IMG/VR virus record: IMGVR_UViG_3300028603_000001
Location: 1-64,000 of that record
Direction: 5' to 3' (one strand)
DNA length: 64,000 nt
DNA from: a virus
Lineage: Duplodnaviria > Caudoviricetes
Numbering within the stretch: the first letter of the stretch is position 1; each line of letters opens with the position of its first letter. The notes below the pieces were generated by a model. The model ran no database searches and was not told the origin of the DNA. It saw nothing but the letters and a program-made list of their open reading frames with translations. Positions 3,765 through 41,387 of this stretch are shown piece by piece. Made by a program: the position numbers and the translations under genes.

Positions 3765-3767
3765 TAT

Positions 3768-4028
3768 CTATTCAACCTCTACTAATTCATAATAGACAGA
3801 ATCATTTATACTATTAACTATTTCACGAATCACATCATCTTCACTATCATCAACATCAAACTCATTCCAGATATATTCTAACCACTCACCGTGGTCAATT
3901 CCGTCTTGAATTCTATCTTCTAGTGTGTTAATAATATCTTTAACTGTAAAATATTTATTTTTCTTTAATTTAGTTTCATCAATTGTAATAATAATTTTTT
4001 TCATCTTATAACGCTCCCTTAAAACCAT
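3768..4028 (-). CDS. Hypothetical protein
   Basis: Co-oriented ORF. Confidence 0.65.
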   Translation of the reverse strand: MVLRERYKMKKIIITIDETKLKKNKYFTVKDIINTLEDRIQDGIDHGEWLEYIWNEFDVDDSEDDVIREIVNSINDSVYYELVEVE

Positions 4029-4077
4029 TTATACCAAATTGCTTTTAATGTTCTTTTCCATTCACCATTCTTATTTA

Positions 4078-4911
4078 TTATACTCGTACTACATTAAACA
4101 TATCTTTAATATCACTCATCAAATCATATCTATCAACAGCTGTTGATGACCTAGCAAATTTCTTTTCTACAAGGTCTGCGTACATAGTTGCAGCTCCGTC
4201 ATCTCCCATGTAAAATTCGTTCCATTCTTTGGTTGATAAAATATCTTTTACACACAATTGTTTAATAGCTAAGTTATCAAATGATACAACATCAAACCAG
4301 TTTTCATCTAAAATATTTATTAAGTTATTTTTTAGTATGGAAATTTTAGCTTCAATTTCATCTGAAAGCTTCTTATATAAATCAGCACCGCGTCTAAACA
4401 CTTTGTACCCTAAGATTAAAATCTTAAAATTATTGCCAGATAATTTTTTTAAATCTTCAATATTAATTAAGCCAGCTATAATATGAAGTACTGCGTTTGG
4501 AAATTGTTTTACTTGTTCTATAAATTTATCATCAATATGCATTACAGATATGCCTAAGCCATAAATTAATTTATTATCAACTAAATGCTTAACAAAATCT
4601 AAATTTTTTTGTAAATGAGTTTGGTTGATAGTCATTGAAGGAATTAATTTTAATTTTTTACATTTCTCTAGAAATGAAATTAGGTCTGGGTGTTCTAATG
4701 GATTACCTCCGCCAATAGCTAATTCTGTAAAAGGATGTAATCTGTCAATAAATTCTAGATTCATAATATCGCCATGTAATCCATCTTTTGTTGAATTTTC
4801 ATGGCAATTACTGACTAACACACCATTGCAGAAATAGTTATGGTTATCAGCCACTTCTACATTGTATACATAACCATTATAATCAACTTCTGTTATTGTT
4901 TTAATTTTCAT
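4078..4911 (-). CDS. Radical SAM protein, C-terminal part, preceded by a 35-aa split-intein C-half (IntC, 4807-4911)
   Basis: Starts MKIKT at 4911 with AAAGGA SD; intein blocks F/G VYNVEVADNHNYFCNGVLVSN|C; then CHENS and the GGGNPL SAM-binding motif. Confidence 0.9.
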   Translation of the reverse strand: MKIKTITEVDYNGYVYNVEVADNHNYFCNGVLVSNCHENSTKDGLHGDIMNLEFIDRLHPFTELAIGGGNPLEHPDLISFLEKCKKLKLIPSMTINQTHLQKNLDFVKHLVDNKLIYGLGISVMHIDDKFIEQVKQFPNAVLHIIAGLINIEDLKKLSGNNFKILILGYKVFRRGADLYKKLSDEIEAKISILKNNLINILDENWFDVVSFDNLAIKQLCVKDILSTKEWNEFYMGDDGAATMYADLVEKKFARSSTAVDRYDLMSDIKDMFNVVRV

Positions 4912-5857
4912 TTTGTATATCCTTTCTAAACTGACGGAAATGTTGATCGACTTCCGCGTGACATCTTTCACAAAGAACTTGGGCTAAATCGGTGTTTTCT
5001 TCATGATATTTTCTTAATTCATATATTAAAGAATCGAATTCTGCAGTGCCTACCCTTAGCTTAGATGGGGCAGTTCCAATTTTACGGCAACATTCAAAGA
5101 AAATATCTTTATATTTTCTTTTATGGTGATGAACCATCAATTTACCCTTATCATCGCCACATAATTCGCATTTGAAGTGAGCTCGTTTAAGCTCGCGGTC
5201 TTTCCATTTATATAGATATACTCTTGCAACTTCTTTGATATTAATATAAGCTTTCTTTGGTAGGTTGAATCGATTCTTCTTGCGGGTCTCTATGCTCTTT
5301 AAAACTACTTCTGGGCGCTTCATTGGATTATTAGCTAACATTTTATCTGATAGTAATTTTGAGACCTCTTCTTTAGTTCTTTTTGGACGAGATCTTTTTA
5401 ATAATATCTCAGCTTGTCGTTCTGGTGTAAGGCGTGCTTGTGATGGATTATTCAATTTCATTTTATTAGCGATATTTTGAAAATGTTGTTTTTTACATTC
5501 ATCGCAAGTTTTATACTTAATTATTTTAGATGTTTTTGTAACTTTAGCTTCTCTAGTGCCCAATAATTTGCTGCAACGTCTACATACTAATTGTTGAGTT
5601 ATAATTTGATATTTTGGTCTGCGCAACTCCATTTTGCATTTATGGCACATATTATGGTATTCACCTTGTTGTTGCTTACTTATTTCATAGGAGTCACCGC
5701 AACGACTGCAAACACGAACTTCTACTTTATTATAAAGTTCTCGACTTTTAAATAAGCGATGTTTGTGCCGACATTCTGGTTTAGTGCAGCTAACATTATC
5801 TTTTCGTGTAGCTTCATATTCTTCTCCACAATAGCGACATATTCTTATTTCTTTCAT
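4901..5857 (-). CDS. Free-standing HNH homing endonuclease with N-terminal Zn-finger repeats
   Basis: Multiple CxxC; C-terminal CELCG...LMVHH...VLCERCHAEV. Confidence 0.85.
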   Translation of the reverse strand: MKEIRICRYCGEEYEATRKDNVSCTKPECRHKHRLFKSRELYNKVEVRVCSRCGDSYEISKQQQGEYHNMCHKCKMELRRPKYQIITQQLVCRRCSKLLGTREAKVTKTSKIIKYKTCDECKKQHFQNIANKMKLNNPSQARLTPERQAEILLKRSRPKRTKEEVSKLLSDKMLANNPMKRPEVVLKSIETRKKNRFNLPKKAYINIKEVARVYLYKWKDRELKRAHFKCELCGDDKGKLMVHHHKRKYKDIFFECCRKIGTAPSKLRVGTAEFDSLIYELRKYHEENTDLAQVLCERCHAEVDQHFRQFRKDIQNEN

Positions 5858-5858
5858 A

Positions 5859-6305
5859 TTAAATAGTTAGTAAATCATCATCTAATGTTAATTTTGCAGC
5901 TTCTACATAACCCCTGTTTTGAGTAAATATTTTATGGTTAGGTGTGCACTCTATAGTGCGATTATCTGCTAAAGTAATTTTTATTAGTTTTCCGCTATAT
6001 TTTCTTTTATACGTTTTAACTACTTCCTTTATTTCCAAATCTGCTTTCTCTTCATTATAGGATAATAGCTCAAGACCAGGTTGAATACCGCGAATAGCTT
6101 TTGATTTACTGTCTCCTTTAATTAATTTAGCATTAGGAGGGAAACAGAATATACACCCCATATCACATTTATTTGTAATTTTTAGATCCATTGATTCTGG
6201 AAAATCAGCTCTAAAATGATCTAAATCATTTTCTCTGATTTTTGTCCCATCTGAAAATAGTGTTACTGTATAATTACCATTTTTATATTTTCCCAATAAC
6301 TTCAT
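5859..6305 (-). CDS. Radical SAM protein, N-terminal part, fused to a 95-aa split-intein N-half (IntN, 5862-6146)
   Basis: KITNKCDMGCIF|CFPPNAKL (block A) ... IECTPNHKIF (block B TxxH) ... AAKLTLDDDLL*. Confidence 0.9.
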   Translation of the reverse strand: MKLLGKYKNGNYTVTLFSDGTKIRENDLDHFRADFPESMDLKITNKCDMGCIFCFPPNAKLIKGDSKSKAIRGIQPGLELLSYNEEKADLEIKEVVKTYKRKYSGKLIKITLADNRTIECTPNHKIFTQNRGYVEAAKLTLDDDLLTI

Positions 6306-6330
6306 TGTTTCCTCTTTAATACTTTTTTAA

Positions 6331-6675
6331 TTATCCATCATAACCATATTTAGCGACTGCTTTTATTACATCACCACCTGGTGTTTCATATTCATATGTG
6401 TCAACTTCAAGACTGTCTGTATCTATAAATTCATCATAAGTACAGAACGAATAAGTATCTCTCTCATAATCAATTTTTTCATAATATGCATCTACTACAT
6501 CTTTCGGATAGAAATTTCCTGTTTTAAAGCCAGCTTCTCTTATTTGTCCATAAGAACTTTGACAGTAATAGGTAGTACCATCTTCCCATTTGTTAAAATC
6601 ATTTGCAATTGCCATAACCAAGCTGTGTGTGCTTGAACTGTTTGTTTCAAAAACATTATGTCTGATTTGTCTCAT
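6331..6675 (-). CDS. Conserved phage protein with FETNSSSTHS motif
   Basis: MRQIRHNVFETNSSSTHSL N-terminus; start reassigned to 6675 (AAAGGA SD). Confidence 0.75.
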   Translation of the reverse strand: MRQIRHNVFETNSSSTHSLVMAIANDFNKWEDGTTYYCQSSYGQIREAGFKTGNFYPKDVVDAYYEKIDYERDTYSFCTYDEFIDTDSLEVDTYEYETPGGDVIKAVAKYGYDG

Positions 6676-6837
6676 TTTTTTTATTTTTCCTTTCTTTTTT
6701 TTAACTTTAATCAAATAAAGCTTCAATGTTTTTTTCTTTTATCTTCCGCTCAACTTAATTCAACTCAATTCAATATTAAGCGTCCTATAAAAAGTATTCA
6801 TATGTATGTCCATTTTCTAAAGTATGTATATATATCT

Positions 6838-38011: not shown

Positions 38012-39517
38012 TTATAGTATGATTATATCATCATACATAAAATAATCTTCAGTTTTCTTTTGGGCATCCGATGGGTGCATCCGATCTGGTTTTAATCTCC
38101 CATTAATCATTTTTAACTCTTCTTCCATGTTTAATGTTAATTGCTTAATATCATCTGAGAAACTATTATCTTCATTTATCTGCAATAACTGTTCAGCGCT
38201 TTCACCATATTCATAAGCGAACTGTTCAGCATGCTTACTTGCGTTAAATATTGATCCACAAACAGCATCGCAGACATCTTTCGCTCCACCGCTCGGGTGA
38301 TCTATTTTACCAGTATTGATATTACGCTCTAGATTAATTATCTGATGTATAAGCATCCTGTCATCGTACATCTCTAATCTTTTTTCATATATAGTTGATT
38401 TGAAATATTGGTAAGGAACACACACATGGTTTGTATCAACACGATCGACCGATAACACAGAATATGGATAACCTTTAGCTCTTAACGTCTCACCAGTATC
38501 ATAAGATTGATATGTATCTGTTGTTATCCCTCTTATATTAAAACCTTTGCTTTTTAACCAGTAAATAAAGTTTCTATTTTTTTCAAAACTTATATGTCTC
38601 CCTCTTGGAGCTTTAATACTAACACTAAAAGCTAAAGAATAAAACAAATCTTTACTTTGGTCTAAATCTATTTGAGAATGTTTTTTTCCTCGTATAAATA
38701 TTCCTGCGATTCCAGTCATATCTCCTGAATAAGACATATCTAAATGTATAAATAGTGGTTTATATCTTAAAGCTGGGTCAATTTTATCTAGATCAAAGAA
38801 ATTATAATATTGAACTTCTGCATCATCTGGTCCATCACCGATTTCTAATATTTCACGACTGAATGGATTTTTAATTCTGTCTGTTACATTTTCAACCGCA
38901 GCAGCTCCGTTTATATATTTAGAAATGCTTGATGCTGAGATACCTGCAAAATCACATAAAGCTCTATCTATATCATCTAGAAAATCTGGTTTAAAATCTA
39001 TTGGTACATTGATTATTTCACTATACCCTTTTTCTCTATATGCCTCAATATCTTCATCATCTTTCATTACAACAGAATCTAAAAATTTATTTCCTAAAGC
39101 AACTCTAAATGTTGTTTCTGAATAAGTTCCAGGTGGTTTAACTTCCCAAACACTTCCTTCTGAAATATAAACATTATCTTTCTCTGAAATAAGTTTTTTT
39201 CTCATATGTTCTTCAAGAAAAGATTTATCGCTTCTTTTTGATGAAGCCAAGACTAGTAAGGTAGGATTTTTACCACGGTGTACAAATCTTGTTTTCATAC
39301 CTCCGATAGCTGTATCAATCATGTCATTGGCTTTTTTCTTTTGTTTTTCGATATCTTGATTTCTTTGGAATGAAACCTCGTCAAAAAAGCAGTTATGTGA
39401 ACATATATACGCAGTATTTGTTTTGATAAAGAAGTTGTTAAATGGATTAGCATTTATAACATCATAATATTTTTTAGGGGCATCTAAGTGATTTATCTTT
39501 ATACTTTTAATTCTCAT
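38012..39517 (-). CDS. terL: Terminase large subunit, C-terminal part, preceded by a 42-aa IntC (39392-39517)
   Basis: MRIKSIK...YYDVINANP.NNF...SHN|CFFDE (Walker B); nuclease motifs HLDMS..GD and KIDHP..GAKDVCDAV. Confidence 0.9.
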   Translation of the reverse strand: MRIKSIKINHLDAPKKYYDVINANPFNNFFIKTNTAYICSHNCFFDEVSFQRNQDIEKQKKKANDMIDTAIGGMKTRFVHRGKNPTLLVLASSKRSDKSFLEEHMRKKLISEKDNVYISEGSVWEVKPPGTYSETTFRVALGNKFLDSVVMKDDEDIEAYREKGYSEIINVPIDFKPDFLDDIDRALCDFAGISASSISKYINGAAAVENVTDRIKNPFSREILEIGDGPDDAEVQYYNFFDLDKIDPALRYKPLFIHLDMSYSGDMTGIAGIFIRGKKHSQIDLDQSKDLFYSLAFSVSIKAPRGRHISFEKNRNFIYWLKSKGFNIRGITTDTYQSYDTGETLRAKGYPYSVLSVDRVDTNHVCVPYQYFKSTIYEKRLEMYDDRMLIHQIINLERNINTGKIDHPSGGAKDVCDAVCGSIFNASKHAEQFAYEYGESAEQLLQINEDNSFSDDIKQLTLNMEEELKMINGRLKPDRMHPSDAQKKTEDYFMYDDIIIL

Positions 39518-41387
39518 TTTTATATCCCCATATTAAATTTTCAATTATATATTTAAATTTTTTAATTGTGCGTTTAGAATATCCTTTATTTTCAATATTT
39601 CTAATGGCTGAACCTGAAATATCGGGGTAACCATTCTCTTTTAGATATGTTACTAAATCATTTCTACACTCAAATCTAATATTATTAAAAATATAATATT
39701 TGGTAGCGTTAGTGTTATTACCACCGGTTCTTAAATAACCTTTTCCATACATTGAATTTTTACAACCCTTGTGTGCTTCTGATTTACGCAACATAGCATC
39801 TTTATCATTATAATAATTGGTCATATTGTGAGCTTTTCTAGCTGTAATATTTCCTTTTTCCCATCCATTGGGTATCTCTAAGGATTTATCAATAAATTTT
39901 ACTAGCTCACCATTGTTTATTGCTATTTTATCTTTAAGTGTCTGATATCCGCTATGATTTAGCTTTTTAGCTGATGAGCTCATCTTTGTTTTTGTTTCAT
40001 CAGACAATATTTTACCTCTATTCCCAACGCTTATTTTAGCTTTAGTGTCAGGGCTCAAACGCTTGCCTCGGTTTATATCAGATAATTTTTTACGGTGTCC
40101 AGCTGTTTTAGGTCTTCCTTTAAGCGCAGCACTAATGCGAGCTCTTGAAACCTCACCTAGATCCCCACCTTGTCCACCATCTGCAATATTATATCCGATA
40201 GTAGAATCATTAGAATTGAACTTTTTAATATATTCCTTCTCACCGTTATTTAAATCATTTTTGGAAGCATAAAGCTGCAGAATTTCGCATTTGAAATTAT
40301 TTATACCATATTTTTTTACGGCTTTATTTAAAGCAAAACCACTTCCTAAATAATTTGAATCTAAAAATGCTTTTTTATGTTGACCGATATATATCTTTCC
40401 ATTAATCAAATTTGTTGTTTTATAGACATACCCATATGGGATAAAATCTAATATCTCATCTGCTTCAGTTAACTTTTGAGCTTCTTTATAAGAACCATCT
40501 ACTAACCTAAATCTATGAGTTGGGGTGCATTTTATAATGCTACCATCTTCTAGTTCTATTTCATATTCGATGCTAGATTCTGCTGTTTGTTTAACGGTAC
40601 ATTCATCGCTTATTATAAATTTATGATCATCTGATAAAGTGGGAACTTTAATTTTCTTGTCTAATAAATCCTCAATTTTGAATGTTCCATTTGTTGTTAA
40701 AATTTCGGTGTTTCCTTCAAGACAAAAATATATAGGCAAACCAATTAAATCATCAGCTTGTGAACCTATTTTAATATCAACAGCTTCTTGGTTATTGAAT
40801 TTTTGTGGTACCCATACTTTATTTGTTCTTCCTTCAATTGTTCCATGCTTTAAAAACCAAGGACTAGATTGAATAGTGTTTTGAAATTTAGCTATACCTA
40901 TTTCTTCTGCTAAGTCTTTTTTGATATTCATAAACGCAAAAACAAGCTTTTCAGTAGGTTTTAAGTGAAAATAAGCTATTGGATCTTTTAAGCATAATAC
41001 CCTGTGGAGAAGATAAGCAGCTATTAATACAGCTATCTCTGTTTTTCCACGACCACGAGACCCAGAGAGGATAGCGTTATTGATTGAAGTTGTCAAATTA
41101 TCTGGGAATATTTTTACTAGCTCTTCTCTCCAATATGGGTATAATTTAGATTTACCTTCACTATCATGCCATGCGTTTCCTAAATATTCATAATTATCTA
41201 CAAAGGTTAAGATATCAACCGGAATTTCATTGTAATCTTCAAGTAATAGTTTGTTTAACTGCTCTGATGTACCTTCTTTAGAATACTCTTCTAAAATAGC
41301 AAGAGCTAACTCTTTTTCTTCTGGTGATAATGATTCTAGCAAAGATAGATCCAGATTTTGGTTATTTATATTTGTTTTGCTGACCAA
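39507..41387 (-). CDS. terL: Terminase large subunit, N-terminal part, fused to IntN (from 40724) and an in-frame GIY-YIG/NUMOD3 endonuclease
   Basis: Walker A GSRGRGKT; IYF|CLEGNTEI; IKCTPTHRF; then GYVYKTTN...IYIGQH, YLGSG, GYNIADGG, ETKxKMS repeats. Confidence 0.9.
   Translation of the reverse strand: MVSKTNINNQNLDLSLLESLSPEEKELALAILEEYSKEGTSEQLNKLLLEDYNEIPVDILTFVDNYEYLGNAWHDSEGKSKLYPYWREELVKIFPDNLTTSINNAILSGSRGRGKTEIAVLIAAYLLHRVLCLKDPIAYFHLKPTEKLVFAFMNIKKDLAEEIGIAKFQNTIQSSPWFLKHGTIEGRTNKVWVPQKFNNQEAVDIKIGSQADDLIGLPIYFCLEGNTEILTTNGTFKIEDLLDKKIKVPTLSDDHKFIISDECTVKQTAESSIEYEIELEDGSIIKCTPTHRFRLVDGSYKEAQKLTEADEILDFIPYGYVYKTTNLINGKIYIGQHKKAFLDSNYLGSGFALNKAVKKYGINNFKCEILQLYASKNDLNNGEKEYIKKFNSNDSTIGYNIADGGQGGDLGEVSRARISAALKGRPKTAGHRKKLSDINRGKRLSPDTKAKISVGNRGKILSDETKTKMSSSAKKLNHSGYQTLKDKIAINNGELVKFIDKSLEIPNGWEKGNITARKAHNMTNYYNDKDAMLRKSEAHKGCKNSMYGKGYLRTGGNNTNATKYYIFNNIRFECRNDLVTYLKENGYPDISGSAIRNIENKGYSKRTIKKFKYIIENLIWGYKNEN

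Follow-up and report, generated by a model that had tools for sequence, protein, structure and literature searches.

A fractured phage radical SAM gene, with a predicted class-1 split intein and a likely HNH-like homing endonuclease gene inserted inside its metal-ligand motif

How could a phage obtain a radical S-adenosylmethionine (SAM) enzyme from a gene that is divided over three open reading frames (ORFs), when the division falls among the cysteines of the CxxxCxxC motif that would hold the cluster? The question is raised by positions 4078 to 6305 of the window, by which we mean the whole stretch of DNA analysed, the first 64 kb (64,000 nucleotides, nt) of the 180.8-kb virus record IMGVR_UViG_3300028603_000001, which has direct terminal repeats. 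There, on the minus strand from 6305 to 4078, lie three tightly packed ORFs in three different frames. We consider them, very probably, to be a live fractured gene, interrupted by a class-1 split intein together with a zinc-ribbon/HNH homing-endonuclease gene and repaired by protein trans-splicing. This is the best reading because no catalytic residue of the intein and no family-invariant residue of the exteins has been lost and because the layout is recurrent. The parts of the locus are listed below, with IntN and IntC standing for the N- and C-terminal intein halves and lengths given in amino acids (aa).

6147..6305, minus strand: N-extein of the radical SAM enzyme, 53 aa, ending ...KCDMGCIF and holding the first two cluster cysteines
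5862..6146, minus strand: IntN, 95 aa, with Cys1 (CFPPN...), block B TPNH and the end ...DDDLLTI
5859..5861, minus strand: TAA stop of the N-fragment, one base before the ATG of the middle ORF (TAAtATG)
4901..5857, minus strand: free-standing endonuclease ORF (the middle ORF), 318 aa and a stop, with three CxxC..CxxC zinc ribbons
4807..4911, minus strand: IntC, 35 aa, MKIKTITEV...VYNVEVADNHNYF...VLVSN, with its own ATG at 4911
4078..4806, minus strand: C-extein, 242 aa and a stop, starting with Cys+1 (CHENSTKDG...)
4920..4927, minus strand: Shine-Dalgarno-like AGAAAGGA, 8 nt 5′ of the IntC start codon and within the end of the HNH ORF
6308..6317, minus strand: Shine-Dalgarno-like AAAGAGGAAA, 5′ of the N-fragment start

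The first ORF (the N-fragment, 148 aa) runs from the ATG at 6305 through codons ending at 5862 to the TAA at 5861-5859. The last letters of its N-extein before CFPPN are KITNKCDMGCIF, and over its whole length this N-extein can be aligned with the start of the intein-free homologues. The middle ORF starts with the ATG at 5857, its last codon ends at 4904 and its stop occupies 4903-4901; besides the zinc ribbons it contains two RMKxNNP(M/S) repeats and a C-terminal HNH-like domain. The third ORF (the C-fragment, 277 aa) begins at the ATG at 4911, overlapping the end of the middle ORF by 11 nt, and stops at 4080-4078; its C-extein contains the GGGNP SAM-motif region and the remainder of the barrel. 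These ORFs and coordinates agree with the layout given in the original prediction, which was made from the sequence alone and described an N-extein with a 95-aa IntN, a separate HNH gene and a 35-aa IntC joined to the C-extein behind its own Shine-Dalgarno sequence and ATG. The spliced length proposed there, about 296 aa, needs a small correction, as the computed joined exteins make a product of 295 aa that reads CDMGCIFC across the junction. The G+C content of the inserted element (4807-6146) is slightly higher (0.31-0.35) than that of the flanking extein DNA (0.26-0.30).

Homologues that lack the intein place the junction independently of any intein model. PHROG 16999, annotated as 'Fe-S oxidoreductase', matches the C-fragment (E 5e-35). 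The intein-free gp128 of Microcystis phage LMM01 reads ...CDMGCKYCHESS... uninterrupted across the predicted splice point, the intein-free homologue of Prevotella phage Lak-A2 runs through the same point as ...CREMCQFCYEG..., and a further intein-free homologue reads CDMGCNMCHENS across the junction. A comparison with intein-free homologues had been called for at the outset, and it places the N- and C-exteins side by side at the predicted junction. Among 80 related IMG/VR loci, collected via the C-fragment, 79 have both exteins with 0-6 nt between the ends of the N- and C-extein alignments and are intein-free, the 80th (L081) being truncated; no intein or HNH match was found in any of the 80. 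The splice of CDMGCIF to CHENS, before the third cysteine of CxxxCxxC, had been predicted at precisely the point where these homologues abut.

An almost identical empty allele, L089 (protein P0039, on a metagenomic contig), fixes the boundary of the insertion. It is 98.1% identical in DNA to the window over the joined exteins (98.3% over the C-extein alone), and its flanks align to window positions 6765..6152 and 4806..3765, giving a 1,340-bp insert at 6146..4807 whose boundary is exact to the codon and lies directly before the third-Cys codon of CxxxCxxC. The exteins of the two alleles differ at 17 of 888 nt, and six of these differences fall within 14 nt of the insertion point, a clustering with a P of about 2e-7 at the background rate; with a slash marking the insertion point, the junction letters are AAC ATG / TGT CAT GAG in one case versus ATA TTC / TGC CAT GAA in the other. 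Such a cluster is what homing predicts, whether because the occupied allele has a changed recognition site or because a short tract was co-converted. Near-identical empty and occupied alleles that meet at so precise a boundary are, at the level of sequence, what a homing element would be expected to leave. A near-identity DNA search of the locus against GenBank phages returned no match.

Is the host gene a radical SAM gene, and is it still alive? The protein of the empty allele scores 28.5 bits on Pfam Radical_SAM (PF04055; cut-off 29.5, E 2e-6) and has weak matches to many NCBIfam radical SAM families, none near cut-off. Its structural model, with a predicted local distance difference test score (pLDDT) of 94.4, reaches a Foldseek probability of 1.00 to SuiB, CteB, SkfB, anSME, viperin and MoaA (best E 3.6e-7; template modelling score by query 0.5-0.64). 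These matches of the model support a radical SAM fold, that is, a partial TIM barrel, for the host enzyme, as had been proposed; Atlas labels for the protein are limited to 'viral radical SAM' and 'hypothetical'. The three cysteines of CxxxCxxC are invariant in 40 intein-free homologues. It might be supposed that the insertion destroyed the gene and that the pieces are its decaying remnants, a view to which the unassigned function of the host enzyme and the far greater frequency of intein-free alleles, 79 of the 80 IMG/VR loci, would both be congenial. We nevertheless find it very improbable: none of the three ORFs is broken, 36 of the 36 residues invariant in the 40 intein-free homologues are still present when the exteins of five fractured alleles are joined in silico, few changes separate the window from L089 away from the junction (11 of 867 nt, 5 of them amino-acid changing), and the layout persists over deep divergence.

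The intein itself is recognisable by profile in both halves. Pfam Intein_splicing (PF14890) matches the N half with 41.6 bits (cut-off 35.8; profile positions 12-92) and the C half with E 5.7e-5 (profile positions 122-155), the nearest solved intein to IntN is NrdJ-1 (E 4e-14), and the split point, with 95 aa on one side and 35 aa on the other, is the canonical endonuclease-insertion site. Cys1 (residue 54 of the N-fragment), TPNHK, C47 and C51 are invariant in 26 of 26 aligned N-fragments; blocks F and G and the terminal Asn, with the junction ...VSN/C (the slash here and below marks the splice point), are invariant in the five C-fragments of the radical SAM subfamily, and SN/C or HN/C occurs in all 15 occupied loci. 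The N-fragments and C-fragments compared are mutually only 45-60% identical, yet the splicing residues do not vary. With Cys1, block B TxxH, a terminal Asn followed by Cys+1 and the profile match, the two halves appear from their sequences to constitute a class-1 intein. In a complex prediction, IntN with IntC scored 0.75 against 0.01 for the best control, the runs agreeing in at least 96% of contacts with a partner pLDDT of at least 75; the mark used is attained by 58 of 80 solved complexes and by 2 of 110 mismatched pairs. Because split-intein complexes have already been solved, this pass may reflect likeness to solved split inteins, not binding.

Two residues of the intein are atypical. In block F an Asn (VYNVEV) takes the place of the Asp of most class-1 inteins, and in IntC a Ser takes the place of the His before the terminal Asn; Asp and His are usual at these two places, though not universal. 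The five C-fragments of the subfamily have both residues without exception. The Asn of block F is also present in a contiguous cellular NrdJ intein and in the SNF2 split intein encoded by the same genome, and the penultimate His (VHN) is present in other fractured loci. Since the two residues are fixed in the subfamily and the block-F Asn recurs in relatives, they look like lineage traits rather than decay. They could also be taken to mean that the intein halves are a non-covalent dimerisation module, by which the enzyme pieces assemble without a peptide bond, and a precedent exists in a fragmented phage ribonucleotide reductase that is reported to be assembled by interaction domains derived from a mobile element (PMC3045599). 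Such a module is improbable here, as the residues that only splicing needs (Cys1, TxxH, terminal Asn and Cys+1) are invariant across lineages 45-60% identical, and an unspliced intein of 130 aa would occupy the cluster-binding loop.

Trans-splicing had also been thought to create the Fe-S motif, which was said to exist only in the spliced protein. This part of the original prediction does not hold: because the intein Cys1 directly follows CDMGCIF, the N-fragment already reads CxxxCxxC before splicing, with Cys1 as the third cysteine, and the same is true of 26 of 26 N-fragments. What the precursor would lack, judged by its sequence, is the barrel and the enzyme context, not the motif string. 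As Cys1 completes CxxxCxxC with two extein cysteines, the precursor could hold Cys1 in a disulfide, a metal complex or an Fe-S complex. In the MoaA intein of Pyrococcus abyssi (P. abyssi; Callahan et al. 2011, as recounted in PMC3922620 and PMC10663303), a disulfide between the extein Cys-3 and Cys1 is reported to block splicing until conditions become reducing. By analogy, trans-splicing in the phage might be gated by redox state or iron, so that the oxygen-labile enzyme would be assembled only in a reducing, iron-replete host; we regard this as rather unlikely, but if it were true the phage, which has three distinct split inteins, would include among them one that is naturally conditional. 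The original prediction also took splicing to be obligatory and perhaps responsive to redox or metal status, and both ideas are conjectural. Among the N-fragments, the metagenomic P0027 reads CDMASVCVY/C, with Cx5CxxC spacing, and its IntN has a C-terminal extension of 13 aa.

The gene between the halves belongs to a large family, for which an exhaustive profile search gave 145 representative clusters at E<=1e-30 and 2,970 at E<=1e-3. Six CxxC pairs, making up the three zinc ribbons, are invariant in 56 family members, as are C230, C233, H243, H244, H285, C296, C299, H300 and D304 in 56 sequences, which gives the middle ORF an HNH-like signature of the form CxxC..HH..CxxCH..D. In the structural model of the middle ORF (pLDDT 91), residues 204-308 match phage T5 SciA (Z 7.1, root-mean-square deviation 3.2, 93 residues aligned), phage GVE2 HNH (Z 6.5, 5.6, 79 aligned) and EcoKMcrA (Z 5.4, 2.4, 65 aligned). 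These three HNH nucleases were the only matches with Z>=5 among 48,161 chains compared by VIA-align, and more HNH domains stood lower in the list. Other searches were less productive: Pfam, NCBIfam and PHROGs gave no usable match to the middle ORF, its alignment profile returned zinc-finger noise only against the sequences of the PDB, Foldseek with the whole model found nothing at E<=0.001, and hhalign against one Pfam-positive HNH protein found nothing. The invariant signature and the three top structural matches bear out, in the weaker form 'HNH-like', the HNH assignment made at first, and the middle ORF likely encodes an HNH-like homing endonuclease, although this is not proven. Under translation table 11 the frame of the middle ORF is seemingly interrupted in the related loci L083/L084, L094/L098, L095 and L096, which could stem from endonuclease decay or from an alternative genetic code.

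The layout is not peculiar to the window. The N-fragment has at least 25 homologous clusters (at 90% identity) of 146-161 aa, 45-59% identical, each of which terminates about 95 residues past Cys1. Among relatives of the N-fragment and of the middle ORF, the same five-part order is found in at least 15 loci (L083-L088, L090, L093-L098, L101 and L104), and a 554-kb contig carries one of these fractured radical SAM loci, L095. The same intein and nuclease lineage occupies the same place in another radical SAM subfamily that is clearly distinct from the first (L091, L092 and L096), with the junctions ...YCREGCDF/CFLED... and ...VLVHN/CYTSAK.... In L091 (3001-5563) and L092, IntN and the HNH nuclease form one ORF (563 aa, P0207) while IntC is separate, a form intermediate between a contiguous endonuclease-bearing intein and the arrangement in three ORFs.

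These partly fused forms are the one observation that would favour removal or bypass of the HNH segment, by an intron or by frameshifting, to yield a contiguous intein that splices in cis. We judge that possibility to be extremely improbable. An Rfam scan of 3900-6800 gave no family, intron or otherwise, even at E<=1; the ORFs abut or overlap (TAAtATG and the 11-nt overlap), too tightly for an intron core to fit; none of the loci examined has HNH and IntC in one ORF; and a search for a contiguous intein among longer proteins, where such a form would have ranked first, found none, its top hits being intein-free proteins of 290-315 aa. When one IntN pattern was run against 185,579 species genomes, it returned no fractured radical SAM gene, and the related inteins it did find were in other genes, for example NrdJ in metagenome-assembled genomes of Solirubrobacterales. 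In L099 (124-2047), a free gene of the zinc-ribbon/HNH family lies directly downstream of an uninterrupted radical SAM homologue whose motif, CSGNCFDVC, has CxxxCxxxC spacing; this arrangement is a possible precursor state of the fractured layout.

Several points weigh against a live gene repaired by trans-splicing and mobilised by its nuclease. Apart from the block-F Asn and the penultimate Ser already described, the Radical_SAM score of the empty allele stays one bit below the Pfam cut-off, and the best structural Z of the middle ORF, 7.1, falls in the middling range of the tool. Pfam HNH families give no match to the middle ORF of the window, and among its 56 relatives PF01844 matches 2 and PF13391 matches 1 at E<=0.01. 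The apparent interruptions of the middle ORF in several related loci raise the possibility that some members of the family are losing the nuclease. What the sequences establish is how the locus is built, where exactly the junction lies, that both empty and occupied alleles exist and that the catalytic residues are conserved; splicing, nuclease activity, the cleavage site, co-transcription and translational coupling are inferred.

Under the trans-splicing reading, the sequence of events would be as follows. A mobile element of 1,340 bp (6146..4807) sits before the third-Cys codon of a phage radical SAM gene, and the three ORFs are probably co-transcribed; a scan found no minus-strand terminator-like site within the locus, and promoter-like sites there were fewer than in shuffled sequences. 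Translation would give three proteins, N-extein-IntN of 148 aa, IntC-C-extein of 277 aa and the nuclease of 318 aa, the last probably in small amounts through coupling at TAAtATG. IntN and IntC would then associate and trans-splice by means of Cys1, the TPNH block, the terminal Asn and Cys+1, and ligation of ...CDMGCIF to CHENS... would produce the 295-aa enzyme with Cys+1 as the third [4Fe-4S] ligand. The nuclease would meanwhile cut intein-free alleles at the insertion point in co-infecting relatives, whereupon the whole element could spread.

Such a layout has been known since 2009, when Dassa et al. described fractured genes in which an N-extein with IntN, an endonuclease ORF and an IntC with the C-extein follow one another (PMC2677866). 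The order of parts, the overlapping frames and the mainly phage origin are shared with the window, and NrdJ-1, the solved intein nearest to the window's, comes from that fractured-gene set. Unlike the published cases, whose nucleases are GIY-YIG or Vsr-like, HNH genes having only been predicted in that work to be able to fracture genes (PMC2677866), the locus described here combines a radical SAM host with an HNH-like nuclease that has three zinc ribbons, and its site of insertion is inside a metal-ligand motif. The P. abyssi MoaA intein is similar in having an oxygen-sensitive radical SAM host and C(-3)-x-x-C1 geometry and is distinct in being contiguous, archaeal and cis-splicing (PMC3922620, PMC10663303); the CxxxCxxC spacing suggests that it may be inserted at the same motif cysteine.

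Two further kinds of system invite comparison. The cyanobacterial DnaE split inteins (Ssp, Npu) have the same relative split position as the window's intein, and the same Cys1 and Cys+1. The IntC of DnaE split inteins ends ...ASN/C, and its penultimate Ser is shared by the IntC of the window. Unlike the parts of the window's locus, the DnaE halves are encoded at distant places in the genome, no endonuclease gene separates them, and their host is a cellular replicative polymerase. The mobE/HNH genes between nrdA and nrdB, for their part, resemble the window's nuclease gene, and also the arrangement in L099, in being free-standing HNH-type genes tied to one target gene; unlike the window, these cases and the Aeh1 split NrdA reportedly have no intein, and the split protein reassembles non-covalently (PMC3045599).

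Literature searches for inteins in radical SAM hosts found nothing beyond MoaA, and neither this host enzyme nor this type of nuclease was found for a fractured layout in the literature searched. Of the original proposal of a new natural split intein in a radical SAM host, the genuine split intein is upheld, while its novelty has to be qualified in view of the published layout and of the MoaA intein; what sets the locus apart from the published layout is the radical SAM host, the HNH-type nuclease and the insertion inside a metal-ligand motif.

The surroundings of the locus contain one constant companion and, elsewhere in the same genome, two more fractured genes:

6331..6726, minus strand: conserved upstream neighbour gene, outside the mobile element, whose protein has R..VFETNSSSTHS at its N-terminus
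38012-41387 of the window, minus strand: fractured large terminase (TerL) gene, two overlapping ORFs of 626 aa and 501 aa
G000:C1:106154-109415 (L107 655-3916), outside the window: fractured SNF2 helicase gene, split at motif II

In almost all of the roughly 90 related loci the radical SAM gene is accompanied by genes for proteins with the N-terminal motif R..(V/T)FETNSSSxHS, which lie upstream of it or beside it (L002-L088), often as 2-4 divergent paralogues; Pfam, NCBIfam and the Atlas give these proteins no name. It is likely that they serve the radical SAM enzyme as clients or partners, the linkage being what was confirmed. In the terminase gene, the 626-aa ORF contains the N-extein (Walker A GSRGRGKTE), IntN (CLEGNTE...CTPTHRF) and, in frame, a GIY-YIG/NUMOD3-like nuclease, and the 501-aa ORF contains IntC (...AYICSHN/CFFDE) followed by the C-extein. 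The SNF2 gene has the junctions VVDEVHK/CFSGDT... and ...NNILVHN/CKNKSS, with a 372-aa GIY-YIG gene between the halves, and no other intein of the genome is as close a paralogue of the radical SAM intein as that of SNF2 (38% identity in IntN, 47% in IntC). All three split inteins are 24-38% identical to one another in IntN and 32-47% in IntC, and if they are co-expressed, the question of their mutual orthogonality arises. The terminase shares about 36% identity with its counterparts in large phages of Bacillus, Listeria and Streptococcus; this relationship and the G+C content of about 28% suggest a low-G+C Gram-positive host.

The fractured radical SAM locus is real, widespread and mobile, and its insertion site is unusual. 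It extends fractured genes beyond the enzymes of DNA metabolism to a radical SAM enzyme and adds a third type of nuclease, an HNH-type family, to the two described for this layout. The family supplies natural split inteins of the NrdJ-1 clade in large number and great variety, and such inteins are sought as orthogonal protein-ligation tools. Because its nucleophile Cys+1 would be a cluster ligand that Cys1 mimics in the precursor, the element may serve as a test bed for trans-splicing conditional on redox state or metal, and homing can be put to a direct test with the near-identical empty allele, whose target site is altered.

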